Shown: positions 4,436 through 63,982 of the stretch, piece after piece
How the letters are laid out: every line of letters begins with the position of its first letter
Numbering within the stretch: the stretch's first letter is position 1
Source: Gammaproteobacteria bacterium
GTDB taxonomy: Bacteria > Pseudomonadota > Gammaproteobacteria > SG8-11
Length of the DNA stretch: 64,000 bases
Assembly (NCBI GenBank): GCA_024641505.1
Contig: JAHECY010000005.1
Location: 11,502 to 75,501, forward strand
Direction of reading: 5' to 3'
Translations under genes and position numbers: made by a program
Notes under the pieces: generated by a model
Told to the model about the DNA's origin: nothing
The model's input: only the letters and a program-made list of their open reading frames with translations
Databases searched by the model: none

Positions 4436-5309
4436 TCACCAGATTTTGTGCCATGGTTTGCGCCTGACCGAGATACGACGCGCCAAACAGATTGACGTGA
4501 TTTAGAATATGATAAAGATTGTATAACACCTTGCGCAGCCGGTACCCGTCATCCACGGGGTAGGCTTCATGATAAACCCGGTAAAAAGATGCGCCAAATC
4601 CACCAAACAATTCAGTCATCGCCAGATCCGCTTCCCGATCACCATAGTACACCGCGGGATCAAACACCACCGGCTCGTCATTCACGAAACCATAATTACC
4701 GGACCACAAATCGCCATGCAACAAACTCGGGACCGGTGTGTAGCCTGCGAACAGGGCGCCAAGATTGGTCATCAAGAACTCAATCGTAGACCGCAGCCGG
4801 TGCTCACTGCCGGTGCGTTGCATCAGCTGCAGCTGAAATCCCAGGCGGCGGTCCCGCCAGAACTCCAACCAATTGTCATTCGCTGTATTTACTTGCGGTG
4901 TCGATCCAATCGTATTATCCCGATACCAACCAAAGTGTTGCCCATGGATCCGATGCATGGCCGCAAGCTGGCGCGCCAGGAACACCATGCCCCGATCATC
5001 ATGTCTGCGCGTCAATGGTAAGTATTCCAGCACGATATAGGCGGTACCGCCGGCCTGGCCAAAGCACAACGGTTGCGGTACGCGCAAGGTCGCACTAGCG
5101 GCGATTTCGTTGAGTCCCGCGAATTCCGCGGCGAACATTTCGACAAAGCGCTCATGATTACGCTTAACAAAGTAACGAATACCGGCATGCTCGACAAGGT
5201 AACTGTCATTAATGCTGCCCCCTGTCAAAGGCGTCAGCCCAACGGCAGCAAAATGCCGACCAGAGGCAGCGGTGATATGTTCCGATATCTTATTCCAGGC
5301 AATATCCAT
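4422..5309 (-). CDS. Fructosamine kinase family protein (YniA-like)
   Basis: GGSIN, YFVK, FGWYRDNTIGSTPQ, LLHGDLWSGN and DPAVYYGDREADLAMTELFGGF motifs. Confidence 0.93.
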   Translation of the reverse strand: MDIAWNKISEHITAASGRHFAAVGLTPLTGGSINDSYLVEHAGIRYFVKRNHERFVEMFAAEFAGLNEIAASATLRVPQPLCFGQAGGTAYIVLEYLPLTRRHDDRGMVFLARQLAAMHRIHGQHFGWYRDNTIGSTPQVNTANDNWLEFWRDRRLGFQLQLMQRTGSEHRLRSTIEFLMTNLGALFAGYTPVPSLLHGDLWSGNYGFVNDEPVVFDPAVYYGDREADLAMTELFGGFGASFYRVYHEAYPVDDGYRLRKVLYNLYHILNHVNLFGASYLGQAQTMAQNLVSEIK

Positions 5310-5334
5310 GGACCTTCCTTAGGTCTTTCTTTCC

Positions 5335-5343
5335 TGTGGATAA
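5335..5343 (-). promoter_or_regulatory. Perfect DnaA box (TTATCCACA)
   Basis: TGTGGATAA on the + strand in an AT-rich intergenic region, followed by a degenerate TGTGGACTA. Confidence 0.4.
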
Positions 5344-5540
5344 CTGTGTGGACTAAATCCGTTAACGAAAGCTTGCCGAGACCTTACGCCGTGAGAGCGT
5401 ACGGACGGCAAATTCCTTCACTCATTATTATTCTTATTAATCATGCAATTACAGAGAACTGCAAATAATTAACATCATGTATCTTTGCTAACTGATAAGG
5501 ATATAACTCAATGCGTTAATGTGTATAACTGCCGGCCCCA

Positions 5541-5575
5541 TAAAAAAAGCCGGCCATCATGGCCGGCTTTCTTTT
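5541..5575 (-). terminator. Rho-independent terminator of the cytochrome c gene (possibly bidirectional)
   Basis: AAAGCCGGCCA-TCA-TGGCCGGCTTT hairpin flanked by an A7 tract and a T-rich tract, about 20 nt past the stop at 5596. Confidence 0.9.
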
Positions 5576-5595
5576 AGTACCTGTGTATTCTGGAA

Positions 5596-5934
5596 TTATT
5601 TGCCCAGAGACAGTACGAATTCAACCAGACCTTCGATGTCGGCATCAGCTACACGGGGGGAGTAGGGAGGCATTGGCACTTCGCCCCATACGCCTTTACC
5701 ACCGGCTTTAACTTTGGCTACCAAGCGGGCTTTTTCGTCTTTGCCTTTGTACTTGTTACCAACGTCCTGCCAAGCAGGACCAACAACTTTCTTTTCGATG
5801 CTGTGGCAAGCCAAGCAACCGCTTTTCTTGGCCAGTTCCAGTGCCGCAGCTTGATCCATGGCTGCATTAGCCTGGCCAGCCATCATCATAACCGCTGCTG
5901 CGGGAACTGCGATCCAACGTAATTTCATTTTCAA
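5596..5934 (-). CDS. Class I monoheme cytochrome c (c551/c552-like)
   Basis: Signal peptide, CLACH heme motif, VVGPAW, and distal Met in GVWGEVPMPP. Confidence 0.93.
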   Translation of the reverse strand: MKMKLRWIAVPAAAVMMMAGQANAAMDQAAALELAKKSGCLACHSIEKKVVGPAWQDVGNKYKGKDEKARLVAKVKAGGKGVWGEVPMPPYSPRVADADIEGLVEFVLSLGK

Positions 5935-6248
5935 TCCTCCGTCATTTTTACAAAACTACCGCTCCCTTGTATTAGCACCTGAGGTAAACGGCTTGCTCTA
6001 CAATCTATAGGAGTTATTTTGGTTCAACCCCCCATCCTGTAATACGCTTAACATAATCCAAGCATGCGCCGCGCACAGGTTGAGGCTTTATGCCACTTAG
6101 ACCGTACCCTGTCAAGGCCATGTAATAAAATTAGCGTAGCGCGAGCTGCATGCGCCGCGACACAAACTCGAAAATTCTCCGCATCAATTGCCGGCAATCA
6201 AATCCTAGCGCTTTGAATTATCGACATTAACAGATCGTAGACTCGATC

Positions 6249-54066: not shown

Positions 54067-55083
54067 ATGATGTCACAAAAACCAGCCGCCGTGATGATAG
54101 CGCTGCTCCTGGGAATATTGCTGGCCACCGAAACGCTGGCCGCGCCCAAGCGCGACACCAAAGGTATGCACCAGTTTATCAACGAGATGGTACGCGAACA
54201 TAAATTCAAGCGCGCGCGCCTTAAGAAATTGTTCAAGCAGGCGCAGTATCAAGACAGTATCATCGAAGCCATGACCCGGCCCGCCGAGGCCAAACCCTGG
54301 TACGTATACCGCGAAATTTTTCTAACCCCTGCTCGGCTTGCCGGGGGCAATGCGTTCTGGGAACAGAACCGGGAAACGCTGCTGCGCGCCGAGCAAACCT
54401 ATGGCGTACCGGCGGAAATCATTATCGCCATCCTGGGTGTCGAAACCCGCTATGGCGAGCAGCAAGGCGGCTACCGGGTATTGGATGCCTTGACCACTTT
54501 GGCCTTCTATTATCCGAAGCGCGCGACCTATTTTCGTAAGGAACTAAAGGAGTTTTTGCTGCTTACTCGCGAAGAAAAACTCAACCCCCTGGAGATAAAA
54601 GGCTCTTATGCCGGCGCCGTCGGTGAACCTCAGTTCATGCCCAGCAGCTATCGCCAGTACGCAGTGGATTTCGACAATGACGGTAAACGCAATCTCATGG
54701 AAAGTACCGCCGACACTATCGGCAGCGTTGCCAATTATTTCAAAAAACATAAATGGCAAACCGGCGCGAGCGTCATCACTCGGGCCTCGGTCAATGACGC
54801 GCAACTCAAACCACTGCTCGACCTCGGCCTCAAGCCCGCGACACCCGTGGCGAAACTGATGCAACAGGGAGTCGTACCCGCTGATCCCAACCTGGCACCC
54901 TCCACCCTGGGCGCTTTGATCGAGCTGGAGGACCAGGACGGCCCGGAACATTGGATCGGTCTGGATAACTTTTATGTGATAACGCGCTATAACCACAGCC
55001 CCTTATACGCGATGGCGGTATATCAGCTCAGCCAGCAAATTCTTGCCCAGCGCACTCCCGACGACCCCCAGGCAAATCGCTGA
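54067..55083 (+). CDS. mltB: Lytic murein transglycosylase B
   Basis: ILGVETRYG, GSYAGAVGEPQFMPSSY and YVITRYNHSPLYAMAV. Confidence 0.95.
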   Translation: MMSQKPAAVMIALLLGILLATETLAAPKRDTKGMHQFINEMVREHKFKRARLKKLFKQAQYQDSIIEAMTRPAEAKPWYVYREIFLTPARLAGGNAFWEQNRETLLRAEQTYGVPAEIIIAILGVETRYGEQQGGYRVLDALTTLAFYYPKRATYFRKELKEFLLLTREEKLNPLEIKGSYAGAVGEPQFMPSSYRQYAVDFDNDGKRNLMESTADTIGSVANYFKKHKWQTGASVITRASVNDAQLKPLLDLGLKPATPVAKLMQQGVVPADPNLAPSTLGALIELEDQDGPEHWIGLDNFYVITRYNHSPLYAMAVYQLSQQILAQRTPDDPQANR

Positions 55084-55094
55084 GCACGCTCGCC

Positions 55095-55922
55095 ATGCGC
55101 CACTTGCACCTGGGACTCTGCCTGTTACTCGCCACGGGCACCGGCTGCACCGGGTTATCGTCACACCCCGGATCACCGCAGGAACGAGCGCCAGCGGCGC
55201 AAGACCCGTCGGACACGGCGCCCGTGGGTCCGGTGAATCTGGCGTTGATCAAGGAGCCCACTCCGCGTCAGGAGGCACCGAGCCGATTTGGAAATCCGCA
55301 AACCTATGCCGTCAATGGGCGTCAGTACCAGGTCCTGGCGAGCGCCAAAGGCTACCGGGAAAAAGGCATAGCTTCTTGGTACGGCAGCAAATTTCATGGC
55401 CGACGCACCTCCAGTGGCGAAGACTACGACATGTATGCCTACAGCGCCGCGCACCGCAACCTGCCGTTACCCACCTATGTGCGCGTCACCAATTTGGTGA
55501 ATAACCGCAGTGTCATCGTCAAAGTAAACGATCGCGGCCCTTTTCATGACAATCGCATCATCGATCTGTCTTATGTCGCCGCCTTGAAACTCGACATGGT
55601 CGCCTCGGGTACCGCTTTGGTGGAAATCCAGACCCTTGATCCCCTATCCCCCGCCCCTGCCTCGGTAACGGTAAATCCCACCGGCACCGCAGCCGTGTTC
55701 ATCCAGGTGGGCGCTTTCACGGTCCCGGCCAATGCCCGTGCGCTGTCGACACGACTGCAACACCAGGGCATCGACCCTGTTCAAATACGTTCACCCACGA
55801 TCCCTGAGGACAGCTGGTATCGGGTCATCATCGGTCCCCTTGCTTCCGTGGCACAATCCGACGACCTGGTCAACCGTTTGAAAACATTGGGTATTTATGA
55901 CGTCAGGGTATTGGTGGATTAA
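55095..55922 (+). CDS. rlpA: Septal ring lytic transglycosylase RlpA (DPBB plus SPOR)
   Basis: GIASWYG, AAHRNLPLP, NDRGPF, IIDLSY and SPOR QVGAF. Confidence 0.96.
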   Translation: MRHLHLGLCLLLATGTGCTGLSSHPGSPQERAPAAQDPSDTAPVGPVNLALIKEPTPRQEAPSRFGNPQTYAVNGRQYQVLASAKGYREKGIASWYGSKFHGRRTSSGEDYDMYAYSAAHRNLPLPTYVRVTNLVNNRSVIVKVNDRGPFHDNRIIDLSYVAALKLDMVASGTALVEIQTLDPLSPAPASVTVNPTGTAAVFIQVGAFTVPANARALSTRLQHQGIDPVQIRSPTIPEDSWYRVIIGPLASVAQSDDLVNRLKTLGIYDVRVLVD

Positions 55923-56038
55923 CCCGGGGAAGTCGTTGTCAGAAATGACATGCCAGCCGGTAGGACCCGGCGGTCATGAATGCTAAACTCAACCATTAAT
56001 TGTTAAACCTAATTACCCTTATACGAGACCTGTAAATA

Positions 56039-57187
56039 ATGACACTTTTTCGGCATACATGGATGTTTATGGCCTTGCTGTTGACGCAGCAGACCCCCGC
56101 CGACCCATTGTTGGCTCCCACTCCCCCGGCGATCGACGCCAAGGGCTATATCCTTCTGGATTTCCATAGCCTGCGCGCCATTGCCAAAAGCAACGCGGAC
56201 CAGCGCATGGAACCGGCCAGTCTGACCAAGATGCTGAGCGCTTATGTCGTTGCCCATGAACTCGATGCCGGCCACATCCACGGGGATGATGAAGTCCTGA
56301 TCAGCGAAAAGGCCTGGCGCATGCCGGGGTCGCGCATGTTCATCCGGGCCGGAAGCAAGGTAACCGTCGATAACCTTCTCAGAGGCGTTATCATCCAGTC
56401 GGGCAACGATGCGGCGGTGGCCCTGGCGGAACATGTGAGCGGTACCGAGCAAGCCTTTGTCGTGTTGATGAATGAGCATGCCCAGCGCCTTGGCCTCATC
56501 AGCTCGCATTTCATGAATAGCACCGGCTTGCCCGACCCGGATCACTTCACCACGCCCCGGGATATGGCGACGCTGGCCAAAGCCATTATTCAGGATCATC
56601 CCGCCAGTTACAGCCTGTACGCCACCAAGGAATTCCAGTTCAACAATATCGTGCAACGTAACCGCAATGACCTGTTATGGCTGGATGACGACGTGGATGG
56701 TTTGAAAACCGGCCACACGGACAGCGCCGGCTACTGCCTGGTGGCATCCGCCCGCAAGAACAATATGCGCTTGATCGCCGTGGTGCTCGGCACCCGCAGT
56801 GAAGACGCCCGCGCCCAGGAAACCATAAAACTACTGGACTATGGATTCCGATTTTTCGAAACCCGGCGCTTGTATGAAGCCAATGAACCCATAACCGAAG
56901 TCACCATCTGGAAAGGCGCAAAAAAGAATCTAAGCCTGGGTTTGCGCGAGGATCTTTATGTCACCATTCCCCGTGGCCAATTTGACAACCTGGAAACCCG
57001 GCTGGACACCGAAACACGTATCATGGCGCCTGCCGTCAACGGCCAACAACTGGGCACCATGACCGTCAAACTCGGGGAGCAAGCTTTCGCCGAACGCAAT
57101 CTGGTGGCGCTGGAAGCCGTGCAATCCGGCACTCTGCTGGACGGCTTGATCGACGAAGTCAAACTGATGTTCCACAAAACCCCATGA
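56039..57187 (+). CDS. dacA: D-alanyl-D-alanine carboxypeptidase (PBP5/6 family)
   Basis: PASLTKM (SxxK), SGNDA (SxN) and KTGHT. Confidence 0.93.
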   Translation: MTLFRHTWMFMALLLTQQTPADPLLAPTPPAIDAKGYILLDFHSLRAIAKSNADQRMEPASLTKMLSAYVVAHELDAGHIHGDDEVLISEKAWRMPGSRMFIRAGSKVTVDNLLRGVIIQSGNDAAVALAEHVSGTEQAFVVLMNEHAQRLGLISSHFMNSTGLPDPDHFTTPRDMATLAKAIIQDHPASYSLYATKEFQFNNIVQRNRNDLLWLDDDVDGLKTGHTDSAGYCLVASARKNNMRLIAVVLGTRSEDARAQETIKLLDYGFRFFETRRLYEANEPITEVTIWKGAKKNLSLGLREDLYVTIPRGQFDNLETRLDTETRIMAPAVNGQQLGTMTVKLGEQAFAERNLVALEAVQSGTLLDGLIDEVKLMFHKTP

Positions 57188-58041
57188 GCATCGTTTATCT
57201 GAACGGGAAGTTCCTGCCCGCTGACCAGGCATTGGTACCCGTACTCGACCGCGGCTTCATCTTCGGCGACGGAGTATACGAAGTCATACCCGTGTATCAC
57301 GGGCGACTGTTTCGCCTGGAAGAACATCTGCGGCGTTTGCAAGACAGCATGGACGGCATCCGGTTGCACAACCCCCACACCGTGGCCGAATGGTCAGCGC
57401 TGCTGACGGAACTGGTGCAACGCAACGGCGGCGGTGATCTTTCCTTGTACCTGCACATTACCCGGGGGGTCGCGGAACGTGACCACGCCATGCCGCCTGG
57501 CATCGCGCCTACCGTCTATGCCATGTGCAACACGCTGAAAGCGCCGCCCGCACAACAACTGCAAGCGGGTATCGCCGCGATTACCGTCCCGGACATTCGC
57601 TGGCAATACTGTCACATCAAAGCCATTGCCCTGCTGCCCAATATTTTATTGCGCCAGCAGGCTGTTGACCGCGGCGCCATGGAAGCGATTCTGATTCGGG
57701 ATGGTGAGATGACGGAAGGCGCGGCAAGCAACATCTTTGTGGTACATAACGATGTCATCGCCACGCCGCCCAAGGGCCAACACCTGTTACCGGGCATCAC
57801 GCGCGACCTGATCGTGGAACTGGCGCAGACCCACGGCCTGGTGTGTGAACAACGTCGCATTCGGGAAGCCGAACTGGCCACCGCCGACGAGTTGTGGCTG
57901 ACCAGTTCCACCAAGGAAATCCTGCCGATTACCCGCCTCAATGACGCGCCGGTGGGCACCGGTAACCCAGGCAAGCAATGGCGCCGCATCTATGAAATCT
58001 ATCAGCAATTCAAGCGTGATCTTGCGGATACCCCGTCATGA
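57184..58041 (+). CDS. dat: D-amino-acid aminotransferase (PLP class IV)
   Basis: DRGFIFGDGVYEVI, IKAIALLPNIL, EGAASN and LPGITR; directly after dac. Confidence 0.8.
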   Translation: MSIVYLNGKFLPADQALVPVLDRGFIFGDGVYEVIPVYHGRLFRLEEHLRRLQDSMDGIRLHNPHTVAEWSALLTELVQRNGGGDLSLYLHITRGVAERDHAMPPGIAPTVYAMCNTLKAPPAQQLQAGIAAITVPDIRWQYCHIKAIALLPNILLRQQAVDRGAMEAILIRDGEMTEGAASNIFVVHNDVIATPPKGQHLLPGITRDLIVELAQTHGLVCEQRRIREAELATADELWLTSSTKEILPITRLNDAPVGTGNPGKQWRRIYEIYQQFKRDLADTPS

Positions 58042-58310
58042 CCGGCGAAGATAACGACTCACTGCTGGAATTTCCCTGCCAGTTTCCGATCAAGATCATG
58101 GGCCGCAATGCCGGCGACTTTCAAGACCGGGTGGTCGCCATGGTACGCCACCATGCGCCGGACTTATCCGCGGACGCGGTTCAAGTCAGGGCCAGCGGCC
58201 AAGGCAACTATCTGGCGGTCACCGTCACCATTGAAGCCCAAAGCCGGGCTCAGCTCGACGCCATATATCGTGAATTGACCGCCTGCGAAGACATCCTCAT
58301 GGCCCTGTGA
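58038..58310 (+). CDS. ybeD: YbeD/DUF493 family protein
   Basis: [20 protein letters not shown] and QLDAIY. Confidence 0.92.
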
Positions 58311-58311
58311 T

Positions 58312-58968
58312 GTGGAATCCGCTGTGATGATCATACGCAATCTGGGCCTGCAGCCCTATGTCGAAACCTGGACCGCGATGCGCCGGTTTACCGATACCCG
58401 CCAAGGCGAAACTCCGGACGAGGTGTGGCTGCTGGAGCACCCGCCGGTCTTTACCCAGGGACTTAACGGCAAAGGTCACCACATTCTGGACCCGGGTCCG
58501 ATTCCCGTGATCCAGGTTGACCGCGGCGGTCAGGTGACCTATCACGGCCCCGGTCAACTGGTGGGGTACATCCTCATGGATATGCAACGCCGGCAATGGG
58601 GTGTGCGACGACTGGTCAGCACCATAGAACAAACGCTGGTGCAATTATTGGCGACTTACGGCATTAGCGCCCAAGCCCGCGCCGAGGCGCCCGGTGTCTA
58701 TGTGGGCTCGGCGAAAATTGCCGCCCTGGGGTTGCGCGTGCGGCGCGGTGGCAGTTATCACGGTTTCAGTCTCAATGTCGACATGGACCTGACAGCGTTT
58801 TCCCGCATCAATCCCTGCGGTTATCCGGGGATGGCGGTAACCCAACTGGCGGCCTGGCAACCGGGCATTACCGTGGCACAGGTAATCCAGGACCTGACAC
58901 CGCTGCTGAGCCGGCGTCTGGTCGACGATGACGACATATTACAGCAACAACTTTCTTCAGGCGCATGA
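58312..58968 (+). CDS. lipB: Lipoyl(octanoyl) transferase LipB
   Basis: [36 protein letters not shown] and INPCG; start may be ATG 58327. Confidence 0.97.
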
Positions 58969-58971
58969 CCC

Positions 58972-59916
58972 ATGAGCACATCCGACAAAAAGGCCCAACG
59001 GGGCCAGGACAAAGTGGCACGGATTCCGGTAAAAGTGGAACCCACACAAGTACCGCTGCGCAAACCCAAATGGATAAGGGCCAAAGCCGCTAACAGCCAG
59101 CAAGTAGCGCGACTAAAATCCGTGCTGCGTGAACACCATCTGCACACGGTGTGCGAGGAAGCCTCCTGCCCTAATCTGGGAGAATGCTTCAGTCATGGCA
59201 CCGCCACCTTCATGATCATGGGCCATATTTGCACCCGGCGTTGTCCGTTCTGCGACGTGGCCCATGGCAAACCCGATCCTCTGGACCCGGAGGAACCACG
59301 CAACCTCGGGCGCACCATCGCCGCCATGGCGCTGCACTACGTGGTCATTACCTCCGTGGATCGGGACGATTTGCGCGACGGCGGCGCCGAGCATTTCGCC
59401 GCCTGTATTCGCGAAGTGCGTAGTCAGGTGCCGGGTATCAACATCGAAATCCTGGTGCCGGATTTCCGCGGCCGGGTCGAGCGGGCGCTGGAAATGCTGG
59501 CCATGGCACCGCCCGATGTTTTTAATCACAACCTGGAAACCGTGCCCCGCCTTTACAAACAAGCGCGGCCCGGTGCCGATTACCAGGGCTCCTTGCAACT
59601 GTTGCAAGCGTTCAAATCGCAACACCCGGCACTGCCCACGAAATCGGGCTTGATGGTGGGGATCGGCGAGACGCGCGAGGAGATTCTGCAGGTGATGGCG
59701 GACTTGCGCGCCCATGGCTGCGATATGCTGACCATTGGTCAATACCTGCAGCCCAGCAAATTTCATTTGCCGGTAGTACGCTACCTGGAGCCCGCGGAGT
59801 TTGAGGCCTTCGCCGCCGACGCCAAAGCCATGGGCTTTGACAAGGTCGCCAGCGGACCCATGGTGCGTTCCTCGTATCACGCGGATTTGCAGGCGGCGGG
59901 CGCCAGCGTCAGTTGA
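58972..59916 (+). CDS. lipA: Lipoyl synthase
   Basis: [20 protein letters not shown] and RSSYHA. Confidence 0.99.
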
Positions 59917-60014
59917 ATCATTGCCAAGGGAAAGCATGGTATGACTGGCGCGGCGCAGACGCGGTCGAAGTTAAAGCCGGTCATTGATTAGAGATATACT
60001 GTACAGGTATCGTA

Positions 60015-60290
60015 TTGACCAAGATAATACCAAGATTGTTATTCTTGATAAAAATAGTTCTGATCCTGGTCGGCGCACTGATGTTGGTAGGCGGTGGCGT
60101 CTGTGTGGCCTCCAATGCCGTGTTCACTTTCTCGAGTCTGCGCGACAATGGTGAATATTCAATTTATTTGGCACTCATGGGAATATCTGCCGTAATATCA
60201 GTCATCGGCTGGTGGTTGACCAAGGTTTCGCGCCGGATTGACACTACAGCGACTGCCGCCGTACAACAACAAGCAAGACACGATGAGTGA
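60015..60290 (+). CDS. Small two-TM membrane protein with LMLVGGGVC motif (Cys30)
   Basis: TTG start, basic N-region, TM1 ending in GGGVC, second TM; stop overlaps the next GTG start. Confidence 0.65.
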   Translation: MTKIIPRLLFLIKIVLILVGALMLVGGGVCVASNAVFTFSSLRDNGEYSIYLALMGISAVISVIGWWLTKVSRRIDTTATAAVQQQARHDE

Positions 60291-60982
60291 GAAGGGGACG
60301 TATGCGGGATCAACTGCAGTGGTTAGCTCTGGTGGCCGGTTTTTGCGCGCTGGTTGCCGGTTCACTCGGCTGTGCCACCATGCTGGTTTCAGATGCCACC
60401 GATACCCACGACTACACCCCGACGCCGGTTCTGACTGACGAGATAATTGCCATTGGCCAGCCCGACGCATCACTTTCGAAGAAACTCGGCCAACCCGACG
60501 TCATCGCCTTTATCGGCAAGAAGAACACCTATATGCTTTACCAGGGCGGCAAGGAATTAGCGGCAATCGCCGGGCTGCAGCTCGACGGCAGGCACATGAA
60601 TATCGACGCGGACTCCAGCCGGAATCTCTTTATCAAGGACCAGAAGGTATGGGGTCAATTGGTGCTGCAATACGGGGAAGACATGGAAGTTTCCACCGAC
60701 GAACGAGCCAAGCTGAAGGATGCCGGCTTCACGCAAATTGACCAAACCGAAGTTTACAGCAGGACGGTTGATATCGAAGGCGTCGTTTACCCCGCCATTT
60801 CGCTGACCGATGCCCAAATGGAAAAATTGACAACTCAACGTAAAATCAGTCTCTATGACCCCAACGACAACAGCCCGCCGCTTAACCTGAGTAAACTTCT
60901 GCTGATACCGGCCATTGCCGTGGATATTGTCCTGACACCGGTTTATCTTTTTGCCGGTTTGGTTATTCTTGTCTCCAATTAA
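60287..60982 (+). CDS. YidX-like lipoprotein
   Basis: Signal ending GSLGC; DEIIAIGQP...IAFIGKKNTYML; C-terminal hydrophobic LLIPAIAVDIVLTPVYL recalls E. coli YidX; start may be ATG 60302. Confidence 0.6.
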   Translation: MRRGRMRDQLQWLALVAGFCALVAGSLGCATMLVSDATDTHDYTPTPVLTDEIIAIGQPDASLSKKLGQPDVIAFIGKKNTYMLYQGGKELAAIAGLQLDGRHMNIDADSSRNLFIKDQKVWGQLVLQYGEDMEVSTDERAKLKDAGFTQIDQTEVYSRTVDIEGVVYPAISLTDAQMEKLTTQRKISLYDPNDNSPPLNLSKLLLIPAIAVDIVLTPVYLFAGLVILVSN

Positions 60983-60996
60983 TCGCCGCCCAAATC

Positions 60997-61749
60997 ATGT
61001 TTCCTCTCACCCTGCACCCCCACCTGATGCATGCGTTGTTTGAAATAGCCGCGGTGTCAAGCGGGGCATACTATTATCGCTACATCATGCGCCGCAACGG
61101 TATATCAACACAGGCACTGCTCAACGGCGGTCGGTTTGCCGTGGTGATTGGATGTATCTTCGGCGCGGCTATCGGCAACAAGGCGATGTTCTGGCTCGAG
61201 ATGCCGCAGCTGTTCCCACAGTTCTGGAACCAACCCGAGGTGTGGCTTGCCGGGCAGTCCATGGTAGGGGGCCTGCTGGGTGGTCTGATAGGAGTGGAGC
61301 TGGCAAAGAAATTTTCGGGGGTGACAAGCTCGACCGGGGACGCATTCGTGTTTCCCATATTGCTTGGACTGATCATCGGCCGTTTCGGCTGCTTCGTCGC
61401 TGGCCTGGATGATGGCACCTATGGCTTGCCAACCACCTTACCCTGGGGCGTCGATTTTGGTGACGGCATTGCGCGGCATCCCACCCAATTGTATGAAATC
61501 GTATTTGCCGGCGCACTCTGGCTGGGATTGCATTACACTCAACGGCATTTTTTGCTGCGGCAGGGTCTGTTATTTAAGCTCATGCTCGGCAGCTACTTAT
61601 TCTGGCGCCTGTTGGTGGATGCGCTCAAACCCAATCCTTTCGATTATGGTCTCGGCTTATCGGGCATCCAGATCATCTGTATTGTCGCGTTGTTCATCTA
61701 CCTGCCATACGCCTATTTCCAAATACAAAGACGCAGTATCGAAGCATGA
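60997..61749 (+). CDS. Prolipoprotein diacylglyceryl transferase (Lgt) paralogue
   Basis: GQSMVGGLLGG, GRFGCF, PWGVDFGDGIARHPTQLYE and WRLLVDALK; multiple TM helices. Confidence 0.85.
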   Translation: MFPLTLHPHLMHALFEIAAVSSGAYYYRYIMRRNGISTQALLNGGRFAVVIGCIFGAAIGNKAMFWLEMPQLFPQFWNQPEVWLAGQSMVGGLLGGLIGVELAKKFSGVTSSTGDAFVFPILLGLIIGRFGCFVAGLDDGTYGLPTTLPWGVDFGDGIARHPTQLYEIVFAGALWLGLHYTQRHFLLRQGLLFKLMLGSYLFWRLLVDALKPNPFDYGLGLSGIQIICIVALFIYLPYAYFQIQRRSIEA

Positions 61750-63230
61750 GCAGAAAAATTCGTCCGTGGCTGTTTTACGACACGACAGCCTCGGTATGTG
61801 CGAGTTGTCGACGCCAGGTAGAGGCTAAAATCGTCATCAAGGGCGACCAGGTGTTCCTGGAGAAATGGTGTCCCGCGCATGGGTTCGAGCGTACATTGAT
61901 ATGTGACGACGCCGAGTACTACCGACTGTGCCGCGAGGTGTATGTAAAACACCCCGAAATGCCCAGGCAGTTCAACACTCAGATGGTGCATGGCTGTCCC
62001 TACGACTGCGGTCTGTGCCCGGACCATATGCAACACTCCTGTTTGTCCATCATCGAAATTACCGACAATTGCAATTTGACTTGTCCGGTATGCTTCGCGG
62101 AGTCCGCACCACATCTGCGGCATCGACCGTTGCCTGATGTGATCGCGATGCTTGACGCGGTGGTGGCAAACGAAGGGGAAGCCGATGTGGTCCAGATATC
62201 CGGCGGTGAACCGACGCTGCACCCGGATTTTTTCGCCATTCTGGATGCCGCCAAAAGGCGGCCTATTCGGCACCTGATGGTGAACACCAACGGGCTGAAA
62301 ATCGCCACCGACCCGGACTTTGCCGACAAACTCGCCCAATATGCACCCGGGCTGGAGATCTATCTTCAATTCGATTCATTACGCGACGACACCCTCAAAC
62401 TCATTCGCGGCGCCACCCTGGCTGACAGTCATCAACGCGTGCTGGATCGCCTGGAATCAAGATCTATTTCCACGACCCTGGTGATGACGGTGATTTCCGG
62501 CATCAACGATGACCAGATCGGCGAGGTGATACAGCATGCGACAAAATGGCGATGCGTCAGGGGTGTAACCTTGCAGCCGGTGAGCGCAGTGGGACGGTTA
62601 ACGCTGGAACACCCGACTGAGCGCCTGACCGTAAGCGCAATACGTCGCATGGTCGCCGATCAATCACGGATTTTCACCAAGGAGGATGTGGTCCCGGTGC
62701 CGTGTAATCCCGACACCTTGGCGATGGCCTATGCGCTGAAGCATAATGACGCGATCATACCCCTGACCCGCCACCTGGGGTCGGAGGCATTACTTGCCGG
62801 TCCACGGAATACCATCGTATTTGAACGCGACCCCGCGTTGAAAGAACAGGTATTCAAGCTTTTTGCCACCAATCATTCACCGCAGTCCCAGGCGGCTTGC
62901 CTTGCCGAATTACTGTGTTGCCTGCCAGCAGTCGCCGCACCTGATCTTGGTTACGAAAACGTGTTCCGGGTATTGATCGTACAGTTAATGGATATTCACA
63001 ACCTGGATTTGCGCGCGCTGAAAAAATCCTGTATTCATTTCGCGCTACCCGATGGCAGATTAATCCCGTTTGAATCCTACAATCTGTTTTATCGAGGCAG
63101 ACTTTTCGCGCAAACAAGGAAAATCCAGGCGGAAATTGCCAAGCATACTCAAGATCGAGCCAAGACCGGGTCGGAAACGGTGTCATCAAGTGACCTTGTT
63201 CAAACAGACTCGCTGCATATTACAAATTAA
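61746..63230 (+). CDS. Radical SAM protein, Tes/GDGT-MAS (MJ0619)-like family
   Basis: C18xxC21...C42xxH45, C84PYDC88GLC91PDH94, C109NLTC113PVC116, ISGGEPT, LMVNTNG, IYLQFD and KKSCIH...DGRLIPFESYN; ATGA overlap with the Lgt paralogue. Confidence 0.85.
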   Translation: MSRKIRPWLFYDTTASVCASCRRQVEAKIVIKGDQVFLEKWCPAHGFERTLICDDAEYYRLCREVYVKHPEMPRQFNTQMVHGCPYDCGLCPDHMQHSCLSIIEITDNCNLTCPVCFAESAPHLRHRPLPDVIAMLDAVVANEGEADVVQISGGEPTLHPDFFAILDAAKRRPIRHLMVNTNGLKIATDPDFADKLAQYAPGLEIYLQFDSLRDDTLKLIRGATLADSHQRVLDRLESRSISTTLVMTVISGINDDQIGEVIQHATKWRCVRGVTLQPVSAVGRLTLEHPTERLTVSAIRRMVADQSRIFTKEDVVPVPCNPDTLAMAYALKHNDAIIPLTRHLGSEALLAGPRNTIVFERDPALKEQVFKLFATNHSPQSQAACLAELLCCLPAVAAPDLGYENVFRVLIVQLMDIHNLDLRALKKSCIHFALPDGRLIPFESYNLFYRGRLFAQTRKIQAEIAKHTQDRAKTGSETVSSSDLVQTDSLHITN

Positions 63231-63982
63231 TCCGTGACTGAGGAGTGATGCGGCGGGCCCTCCGAAGGCTGTGCGGGCAGGTGCTGCGGATGCCAGAGCT
63301 GCATCACCGGCGCCGTCAGTATCCACAGACCGAAACCCATTACCAGGCACGCGGCGGCCGTGCGGGTACCGGCACGACTGACCCATCGGCGCAATGGTTC
63401 GGCGAGCCCGCCCACCAACATCATGATCGGCAACGTACCTGCGCCGAAACTGACCATGATCGACGCACCCAGCACCCAGTGACCGCTGGCCGCCGCCACC
63501 ACCAGTGCGCTGTACACCAGACCGCAGGGCAGCCAACCCCATAAACTGCCGAGCAGCACCGCTCGCCACGGCCGATCCACAGGGATCACCAAGCGCACCA
63601 ATGGTTGTATATGCCGCCACACCAAGCGCTCACCCACACGCTCGAGCAGTGCCAAACCACGCCACCAGCCGCTCAGGTACAAGCCCATGGCAATAACCAC
63701 TGTCCCGGCCGCTACGCGTGAGACCGTCATCAACCAGCCCGCATGGATATGCAGCCAGCCGGCAAGGCCGCCGGCTAAAGCTCCGATCAACGCATAGCTG
63801 GCCACGCGCCCGACATTGAACAACAGCAGCAACAGCAAGTGTCGCGCACCGGAGCGCTGTCCCGTGACCATGGCGAAATTCAAACTGTTGACGATACCGC
63901 CACACATCACAACGCAATGCACCCCACCGAACACACCGACCAGTAGCGCCGACCCCAGCATCAATATTGAATCCGGCATCAT
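63227..63982 (-). CDS. DsbD_2 / sulfite exporter TauE/SafE family membrane protein (cbb3-oxidase maturation-associated type)
   Basis: GVFGGVHCVVMCGGI, FNVGRVASY, WGWLPCGLVYSAL and FGAGTLP. Confidence 0.85.
   Translation of the reverse strand: MMPDSILMLGSALLVGVFGGVHCVVMCGGIVNSLNFAMVTGQRSGARHLLLLLLFNVGRVASYALIGALAGGLAGWLHIHAGWLMTVSRVAAGTVVIAMGLYLSGWWRGLALLERVGERLVWRHIQPLVRLVIPVDRPWRAVLLGSLWGWLPCGLVYSALVVAAASGHWVLGASIMVSFGAGTLPIMMLVGGLAEPLRRWVSRAGTRTAAACLVMGFGLWILTAPVMQLWHPQHLPAQPSEGPPHHSSVTD

Follow-up and report, generated by a model that had tools for sequence, protein, structure and literature searches.

A bacterial radical SAM enzyme of the GDGT-MAS fold, genetically coupled to an Lgt paralog and small membrane proteins in a putative lipid/lipoprotein-modification module

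Tes/GDGT-MAS is the only characterised enzyme of its fold, and its bacterial homologues have hitherto been considered solely as candidates for making branched tetraethers, which serve as palaeoclimate proxies. Does a bacterial member of this fold necessarily make membrane-spanning lipids? The question is raised by a radical SAM enzyme encoded in a 64,000-nucleotide stretch of a sediment metagenome contig (JAHECY010000005.1; hereafter the window), which a first-pass annotation of the bare sequence described as a gammaproteobacterial Tes/GDGT-MAS-like protein with a modified C-terminal cluster region. Across phyla, the gene for this enzyme is genetically coupled to two other components: a divergent paralog of the prolipoprotein diacylglyceryl transferase Lgt, and at least one small membrane protein whose cysteine is predicted at the outer face of the membrane. 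The reading we prefer, at a probability of roughly 45%, is that the three are parts of a lipid- or lipoprotein-modification module built around phosphatidylglycerol.

A separate subfamily of the GDGT-MAS fold

In the list of open reading frames (ORFs) of the window, the radical SAM gene is uninterrupted for 494 codons and terminates at TAA/TGA. Pfam assigns its product a Zn_ribbon_HMPTM domain (PF23545) at residues 10-54 and a Radical_SAM domain at residues 103-264 (88.6 bits). A phmmer comparison with GDGT-MAS (PDB 7TOL) gives an E-value of 3e-58, and the family profile matches the same protein with an E-value of 6e-71 across residues 13-457. The AlphaFold model, for which 17 homologues were used as input, is of moderate quality, with a predicted local distance difference test score (pLDDT) of 69.6 and a predicted template-modelling score (pTM) of 0.76. 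Foldseek aligns it with 7TOL/7TOM over the full length (E ~2e-30, TM-score 0.69-0.70, ~491-497 columns, ~25% identity), while the next matches, to SkfB, MoaA and viperins, are confined to the radical SAM core. GDGT-MAS (7TOL/7TOM) is the sole close solved relative of the enzyme. PADLOC likewise found only a generic radical SAM core likeness to viperins, and the idea that the cassette is a known defence system was rejected on that ground.

Although the enzyme is a full-length structural relative of Tes/GDGT-MAS, as the first-pass annotation had it, it does not score as a Tes orthologue. The NCBIfam Tes model (NF045702) reaches 266.7 bits against a cut-off of 450, aligning residues 14-336 with model positions 2-327 of 486. 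The top curated score is that of TrsS (NF045646; 312.8 bits over residues 13-447), which also falls short of its cut-off of 490. Because the protein is below threshold for both, these scores place it inside the GDGT-MAS/Tes/TrsS superfamily, outside both curated families, and in a separate subfamily. Public sources name its members generically or wrongly ('radical SAM protein', once 'AlbA'), much as had been predicted for automated annotation.

Residue conservation was counted over 85 homologous loci, at 52-100% identity to the window protein. The N-terminal metal motifs lie at the residues first read from the sequence (C18/C21/C42/H45, C84/C88/C91/H94 and C109/C113/C116), and all three are invariant. 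By comparison with the published GDGT-MAS work (PMC9433317), the zinc-ribbon spacing equals that of C9X2C12X20C33X2H36. C84, C88, C91 and H94 align with C73, C77, C80 and a histidine of GDGT-MAS, with cluster binding predicted from sequence. C99, near this N-terminal cluster, is also invariant but is specific to the family, as GDGT-MAS has a threonine there.

The C-terminus is where the two enzymes part. In GDGT-MAS, the C-terminal [4Fe-4S] cluster is ligated by cysteines and a labile Met439, and it forms an S-C intermediate in C-C coupling; Met439 and Tyr459 are conserved across 1000 archaeal homologues, yet either can be mutated with activity retained (Lloyd et al. 2022, PMC9433317). In the window, the enzyme ends in KKSCIHFALPDGRLIPFESYN, which contains the KKSCIH...DGRLIPFESYN motif, with LLCCLP (C391, C392) upstream. 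Both had been noticed in the first pass, and the archaeal motif given there for contrast agrees with the aligned 7TOL_A sequence. In the 7TOL alignments, C438 is replaced by I411, M439 by V412, C455 by S428, Y459 by F432 and C470 by E443, so that only one of the four C-terminal cysteine positions of GDGT-MAS is kept, C456 as C429. The combination that marks Tes at the C-terminal cluster, three cysteines with the labile Met439, alongside a conserved Tyr459, is not found. Conversely, GDGT-MAS has no cysteine at the position of the Cys-Cys pair ('IIDLILSVLKSDY') and a serine at that of C320.

The suspected departure from GDGT-MAS at this site is not peculiar to the window; it is fixed across the family. 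C320, C391, C392, C429 and H431 are as invariant as the N-terminal motifs and C99. Position 443 is acidic in 85 of 85 loci (Asp in 53, Glu in 32), position 428 is Ser or Thr, and position 412, which corresponds to the labile Met439, is Val in 44 loci, including the window, and Met in 41. C385, the first cysteine of AACLAELLCC, was considered as a fourth cysteine beside C391, C392 and C429 and was rejected for the family because it is not conserved (Ser 38, Cys 27, Thr 11). At the sequence level, then, the C-terminal cluster region is rewired. On the simplest reading, the enzyme still has a cluster here, with three or four cysteines (C320, C391, C392, C429) and possibly a labile carboxylate or Met, and a differently ligated C-terminal cluster is likely.

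Genetic coupling to an Lgt paralog and small cysteine-bearing proteins

Four genes run head to tail in the window, with junctions of a 4-bp overlap, a 14-bp gap and a 4-bp overlap (Table 1). By tblastn, an Lgt-like gene lies directly 5' of the radical SAM gene and on the same strand in 72 of the 85 loci; in the remaining 13, the contig mostly ends just 5' of the radical SAM gene. All-against-all clustering of the surrounding genes returned the Lgt paralog and the radical SAM enzyme as the only genes conserved across loci. Natural fusions also exist, in which LGT, zinc ribbon and Radical_SAM domains follow one another in a single chain (P0124, 733 aa and 45% identical; P0242, 671 aa), the domain order expected if the C-terminus of the Lgt part is cytoplasmic. 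The arrangement of small protein, LGT and radical SAM gene is kept by a relative at 41% identity, and on a RefSeq plasmid (Chondrinema), whose genes were called independently, the LGT gene again stands directly 5' of the radical SAM gene. In L092, which carries the fused P0242, a 459-aa rhodanese-domain protein (4686-6065, + strand) overlaps the 3' end of the fused gene; although this is a single case, finding a sulfurtransferase here is suggestive, given the S-C intermediate formed by a relative of the enzyme.

Other branches of the superfamily are arranged differently, one of them with a methyltransferase downstream. Some PF23545 proteins are themselves fusions, P0215 with an N-terminal MobA-like NTP transferase and P0229 with a class I methyltransferase, which makes it probable that members of the PF23545 radical SAM superfamily carry out several unrelated chemistries. 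At a true TrsS locus (L090; 671 bits), a methyltransferase, a C_GCAxxG_C_C protein, TrsS, an AMP-binding enzyme and XdhC form a run that adjoins molybdopterin and iron-sulfur (Fe-S) oxidoreductase genes and is without Lgt. Such relatives raise the thought that our enzyme might act on a cofactor or other small molecule that is not a lipid, whether in pterin methylation, the role that MJ0619 was once given, or in a TrsS-like role: its top NCBIfam score is TrsS, methyltransferase, C_GCAxxG_C_C and AMP-binding genes occur at TrsS loci, and the MobA-like and methyltransferase fusions are kin. We consider this very improbable, as the pterin assignment of MJ0619 has been superseded by the tetraether synthase work (PMC9433317) and the subfamily's only conserved partners are integral to the membrane and have a lipid-transferase fold.

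The Lgt paralog is itself divergent. It exceeds the cut-off of the Pfam LGT domain (PF01790; 81.5 bits against 24.9) but falls well below those of the TIGR00544 equivalog (34.6 against 118.9 bits) and of the best Lgt model (39.1 against 334), and public sources still label it 'prolipoprotein diacylglyceryl transferase'. While phmmer found no match among PDB sequences, a fold search with the AlphaFold model (pLDDT 85) matched one PDB entry significantly, that of E. coli Lgt (5AZB; E 3e-4, TM-score 0.56/0.51), and thereby settled the identity of the protein. Conservation was assessed by aligning 74 family members with E. coli Lgt, numbered on an E. coli sequence whose signature, G142RLGNFINGELWG154, agrees with the published one (PMC4728403). 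In E. coli Lgt, which takes phosphatidylglycerol as donor, R143, N146, Y235 and R239 belong to a polar network in a central cavity open toward the periplasm, and the H103GGL motif is proposed to bind the lipobox peptide (Mao et al. 2016, PMC4728403). G142, R143, G145, Y235 and R239 are 100% conserved in the paralog family, with R143, Y235 and R239 present in the window as R129, Y200 and R204, and R246 is Lys. In contrast, N146 is Cys in every member (Cys132 in the window), H103 is replaced by Val (Val90) and Y26 by His (His12). From the residues kept (R143, Y235, R239) and those changed (N146, H103), the paralog reads as having a retained phosphate-binding core and an altered acceptor side.

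Small proteins next to the two enzymes have two to three predicted transmembrane helices and one conserved cysteine that follows small or hydrophobic residues, and they occur in two arrangements. In the first, an N-terminal signal-anchor-like helix ends in the cysteine, as in the window (LVGGGVC30VAS, its single conserved cysteine, at the end of the first helix), in Burkholderiales (AGFGLCG) and in Acidobacteriota (SLGLCG, often in two or three tandem copies). In the second, the cysteine ends the last helix near the C-terminus, as in Bacillota and Xanthomonadales (LLNAACFG or LLVAACFG) and in L087, where VSFGLCAYRF is followed by the stop. Across the family the consensus reads [LFGAV]-G-[LIVAF]-C-G, in which position -1 is bulky. 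The canonical lipobox, [LVI][ASTVI][GAS]C, is absent from the window protein, which reads G-G-V-C30, although some members are canonical-like (TAC, SAC, VAAC); the motif as a whole resembles a lipobox of non-standard form. The positive-inside rule predicts for both arrangements a cysteine at the outer end of an in-to-out helix, on the side of the membrane to which the Lgt cavity opens.

Families built by jackhmmer from the small proteins cover 61 of 86 loci, and all 75 short hits lie on the module strand within ~1.3 kb; 27 precede the Lgt paralog, 21 sit between the two enzymes and 21 follow the radical SAM gene. Under a strict rule that demands at least two transmembrane helices and the Cys motif, 72 ORFs qualified among the 562 that lie in the cassette zone on the same strand, as compared to 1 of 555 on the opposite strand and 1 of 2358 elsewhere (Fisher p = 4e-52). 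On the Chondrinema plasmid, PGAP independently calls such a gene, of 64 aa, ending in VIGAGVCGSFF and starting 5 bp after the radical SAM gene.

Short co-encoded proteins with one invariant residue, in one to three paralogous copies, are typical of peptide-modifying radical SAM systems. The small membrane protein could thus be what the radical SAM enzyme acts on directly, modified at or near its cysteine as in pathways for peptides that are synthesised on the ribosome and modified after translation (RiPPs), with the Lgt paralog, which lacks H103 and N146, serving as a membrane scaffold or chaperone in place of a lipid transferase. We regard this as unlikely. The enzyme has the lipid-binding architecture of GDGT-MAS, and Pfam and fold searches found neither a SPASM domain nor a RiPP recognition element (RRE) in it; the cysteine is predicted at the outer end of a transmembrane helix, away from a cytoplasmic enzyme; and the paralog keeps R143, Y235, R239 and the G-R-x-G signature, which a scaffold would not need.

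A further alternative demotes the small proteins to membrane-anchoring or regulatory subunits and has the Lgt paralog and the radical SAM enzyme remodel a free lipid, with Cys132 either catalytic or lipid-holding. It draws on the invariance of Cys132 at the centre of the Lgt cavity network, on the existence of Lgt-radical SAM fusion proteins, and on the way the small proteins differ in position and type by lineage. What renders it improbable is that a single cysteine in a conserved local motif persists in highly divergent small proteins across phyla, which would not be expected of anchors.

Table 1. Features of the cassette and its flanks in the window
Feature	Coordinates	Strand	Description
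Small membrane protein	60015..60290	+	91 aa, two predicted transmembrane helices; proposed acceptor or partner of the Lgt paralog
Cys30 codon of small protein	60102-60104		Conserved cysteine
Accessory protein	60287..60982	+	231 aa; N-terminal signal-anchor, C-terminal transmembrane helix; putative YidX_N-type lipoprotein
Cys29 codon of accessory protein	60371-60373		Ends lipobox-like LVAGSLGC
Lgt paralog	60997..61749	+	250 aa; divergent prolipoprotein diacylglyceryl transferase fold; Pfam LGT
Cys132 codon of Lgt paralog	61390-61392		Position of E. coli N146
Radical SAM ORF	61746..63230	+	GDGT-MAS/Tes-fold enzyme, 494 aa; ATG overlaps the Lgt-paralog stop (ATGA)
Rubredoxin-like zinc ribbon	61797..61880	+	C18-X2-C21-X20-C42-X2-H45; PF23545; invariant in 85 loci
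N-terminal auxiliary [4Fe-4S] motif (predicted)	61995..62042	+	C84-X3-C88-X2-C91-X2-H94 and invariant C99
Radical SAM motif	62070..62093	+	C109-X3-C113-X2-C116; invariant
C-terminal cluster region, apparently rewired	62703..63074	+	C320 (VPCNPD), C391-C392 (LLCCLP), C429 (KKSCIH), acidic 443 (IPFE)
Upstream genes	54067-59916	+	mltB, rlpA, dacA, D-amino-acid aminotransferase, ybeD, lipB, lipA (by translations)
DsbD_2 membrane protein	63227-63982	-	251 aa, convergent; PF13386, 158.9 bits

The fourth gene of the cassette encodes the accessory protein, whose signal-anchor ends in a lipobox-like motif and whose gene overlaps that of the small protein by 4 bp. A homologue at 50% identity, tagged YidX_N (PF27265), occupies the same position in two other loci (L004 and L005); the gene is missing from most others and for this reason is not counted as core. 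The Lgt paralog could use the accessory protein as a second acceptor.

The enzyme is not confined to Gammaproteobacteria. A search of 5.8 billion proteins returned hundreds of homologues at 66-83% identity, in Methylococcales, Gallionellales (Ferriphaselus), Azoarcus, Thiobacillaceae and Sulfuricella, and a scan of one genome per species yielded at least 595 loci. The best 80 of these, at 52-74% identity, come from Beta- and Gammaproteobacteria, Acidobacteriota, Gemmatimonadota, Myxococcota, Planctomycetota, Bacteroidota and Bacillota, and the subfamily is found in at least eight phyla. Carriers are many in Acidobacteriota; those in Bacillota include Paenibacillus, Neobacillus, Brevibacillus, Niallia, Heyndrickxia, Fictibacillus and Gottfriedia, and others are Burkholderiales, Xanthomonadales and metagenome-assembled genomes (MAGs) of Thermoanaerobaculia/Holophagaceae. 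Two Bacteroidota replicons with the enzyme were found in a plasmid collection. More distant relatives there (H3-H11, 27-37% identity) sit on large plasmids and megaplasmids of Mycobacterium/Mycolicibacterium and of the haloarchaea Haloarcula, Halorarius and Halalkalicoccus. Tes homologues in 'various Proteobacteria' had previously been noted, with their function left open, and those of halobacteria occur in strains without glycerol dialkyl glycerol tetraethers (GDGTs) (Zeng et al. 2022, PMC8941075). A 2026 review describes bacterial Tes homologues as known from bioinformatics only.

This distribution, together with the gene context, bears on the view taken in the first pass, in which the enzyme is a free-standing, Tes-like synthase that couples the tails of bulk lipids to make tetraethers or other membrane-spanning lipids, and its neighbours are incidental. 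The full-length GDGT-MAS fold and the metal motifs accord with that view, bacterial Tes homologues have been put forward as sources of membrane-spanning lipids (Zeng et al. 2022, PMC8941075), and the Acidobacteriota, with their many carriers, make iso-diabolic acid by an enzyme that has yet to be identified. However, the neighbours are evidently not incidental: both the Lgt paralog and the small cysteine-bearing proteins accompany the enzyme as conserved partners, and in some genomes the Lgt paralog forms one chain with it. The carriers also include Burkholderiales, Xanthomonadales, Bacillales, Planctomycetota and the Thermoanaerobaculia/Holophagaceae MAGs, among which we know of no producers of membrane-spanning lipids. 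Tes homologues are present in only 3 of 14 acidobacterial iso-diabolic acid producers (PMC13159169), and the window protein is below the cut-off of the Tes hidden Markov model (HMM). Taken together, these points leave a free-standing synthase with a low probability. The narrower proposal that the enzyme is the missing iso-diabolic acid synthase of Acidobacteriota was set aside, as the distribution of its genes does not appear to track the known producers.

A phosphatidylglycerol-centred module

Gene context favours the lipid chemistry proposed in the first-pass annotation but not its bulk membrane-spanning product, since the overlap with the Lgt paralog, the fusions and the accompanying small cysteine-bearing membrane proteins point toward a dedicated lipoprotein-like pathway. 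A substrate of the phosphatidylglycerol type is proposed because the GDGT-MAS and Lgt families both handle lipids with a phosphoglycerol headgroup; the substrate of GDGT-MAS is archaetidylglycerol, and the protein comes out of purification together with E. coli phospholipids (PMC9433317). In the module as we picture it, the cytoplasmic radical SAM enzyme would abstract a hydrogen from a hydrocarbon tail of such a lipid, and its site-differentiated C-terminal Fe-S cluster, with three cysteines and a labile carboxylate or Met, would hold or couple the resulting radical, as in GDGT-MAS. The radical step probably works as it does in Tes. The product might be a tail-to-tail C-C link, a macrocycle or some other tail modification. 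The diacylglyceryl unit, whether or not so modified, would be passed by the Lgt paralog to the cysteine of the small protein at the membrane's outer face, and the two steps could occur in either order.

Several observations weigh against this module. Topology is the main weakness: the Lgt cavity opens toward the periplasm and the cysteine of the small protein is predicted at the outer leaflet, whereas the radical SAM enzyme must be cytoplasmic. Because the active sites face opposite sides of the membrane, direct action of the enzyme on a lipid that has already been transferred is hard to picture. The Lgt paralog may be no transferase at all, as H103, N146 and Y26, residues important in E. coli Lgt (Y26 reportedly so, by Pailler et al. 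2012), are absent. About one quarter of the loci are without a small protein under the rules applied, and six loci with adequate flanks have no Lgt paralog within 6 kb. Lastly, TrsS is the nearest curated HMM, and the genes around TrsS itself have no obvious relation to lipids.

A more specific version of the module, tentative and on balance rather doubtful, would have the Lgt paralog attach diacylglyceryl to an internal cysteine of the uncleaved small protein and the radical SAM enzyme weld the acyl tails of that very lipid. The outcome would be a protein-tethered macrocyclic or membrane-spanning anchor, made by aerobic soil and water bacteria of many phyla. Should the lipid-anchor reading be true, it would amount to a new branch of bacterial lipoprotein biogenesis.

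Whatever its product, a large and well-conserved bacterial subfamily is now tied to a paralog of the lipoprotein-lipidation enzyme and to tiny cysteine-bearing membrane proteins. A vague 'bacterial Tes homologue' thereby becomes a concrete three-gene system with cultured hosts, among them Massilia, Pelomonas, Paenibacillus, Neobacillus, Ferriphaselus and Paracidobacterium. Full-text literature searches for a link between Lgt and Tes-like radical SAM enzymes or tetraethers found no relevant paper, and while the families are known, the combination of an Lgt paralog, a Tes-like radical SAM enzyme and a dedicated cysteine-bearing acceptor-like protein appears to be undescribed. Such genes should not be counted as tetraether synthases in metagenomic surveys. 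For mechanistic work on radical C-C coupling, they offer a natural variant of the C-terminal Fe-S site, seemingly with three cysteines and a carboxylate or Met.

Genomic setting and comparison with known systems

A gammaproteobacterial origin near the Chromatiales/Ectothiorhodospiraceae, in an uncultured organism, is supported by the adjacent LipA, whose named nearest relatives in a homology search are from Gammaproteobacteria, Chromatiales, Thioalkalivibrio and Ectothiorhodospiraceae (71-76% identity). LipA alone among the upstream genes was confirmed by homology, and the cassette appears to have been inserted after lipA. Its G+C content is 0.52-0.56 over the four genes (60000-63230), against 0.59-0.63 in lipB/lipA upstream and in the DsbD_2 gene downstream. 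This low G+C and the patchy distribution across phyla are together compatible with horizontal acquisition of the cassette. The stop of the DsbD_2 gene, which encodes a cytochrome c biogenesis/thiol-disulfide transmembrane region, overlaps that of the radical SAM gene by 4 bp; this gene is not conserved beside the module in other loci. A scan of positions 59700-63600 for promoters and terminators found sites no more frequent than in shuffled sequence, and a metatranscriptome of the same sample (X4) contained 0 contigs over the cassette and gives no information on expression.

In eight Burkholderiales loci (L008, L009, L010, L012, L013, L017, L023 and L026), a fusion of a major facilitator superfamily (MFS) transporter with an acyltransferase (PF07690 and PF01553, ~630 aa) is found directly upstream of the small-protein gene and in the same orientation. 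We take it to resemble a lysophospholipid transporter/acyltransferase, and it may reflect either a link to lipid recycling or mere lineage synteny.

Among known systems, the proposed bacterial lipid-tail-coupling enzyme Mss of Thermotoga/Thermoanaerobacter (Sahonero-Canavesi et al. 2022) is likewise a radical SAM protein, for which a remote relationship to Tes has been claimed. Mss is placed in another family, has so far been described from anaerobes only and has no reported Lgt partner; these distinctions are drawn from its description rather than its sequence. TrsS (NF045646), an uncharacterised protein that appeared in the literature searched only within a selenoprotein list, shares the N-terminal motifs and is the highest-scoring curated model, but our enzyme needs no selenocysteine (Sec) codon and scores below the cut-off, and the neighbours of true TrsS are methyltransferase, C_GCAxxG_C_C and AMP-binding genes in place of Lgt.

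The Lgt paralog shares with E. coli Lgt (5AZB) the LGT domain, the seven-helix transmembrane fold, the G-R-x-G start, R143, Y235, R239 and, as Lys, R246. It is shorter (250 versus 291 aa), having lost most of the periplasmic head domain, differs by the H103 to Val, N146 to Cys and Y26 to His replacements, and is dedicated to the cassette rather than to housekeeping.

The closest comparison is with GDGT-MAS/Tes itself (MJ0619, MA_1486; PDB 7TOL/7TOM). The two share the fold, the four-domain layout, the CX2CX20CX2H, CX3CX2C plus His and radical SAM CX3CX2C motifs, and a C-terminal domain with FMD...C[IV]H...[IV]PF motifs. At ~25% identity, however, our enzyme has a C-terminal domain that is ~35 residues shorter; among C438, M439, C455, C456 and C470 it keeps only C456, and it gains C99, C320, C391-C392 and an acidic residue at the position of C470. 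It is also bacterial, and it is paired or fused with a paralog of Lgt, a protein that to our knowledge archaea lack.

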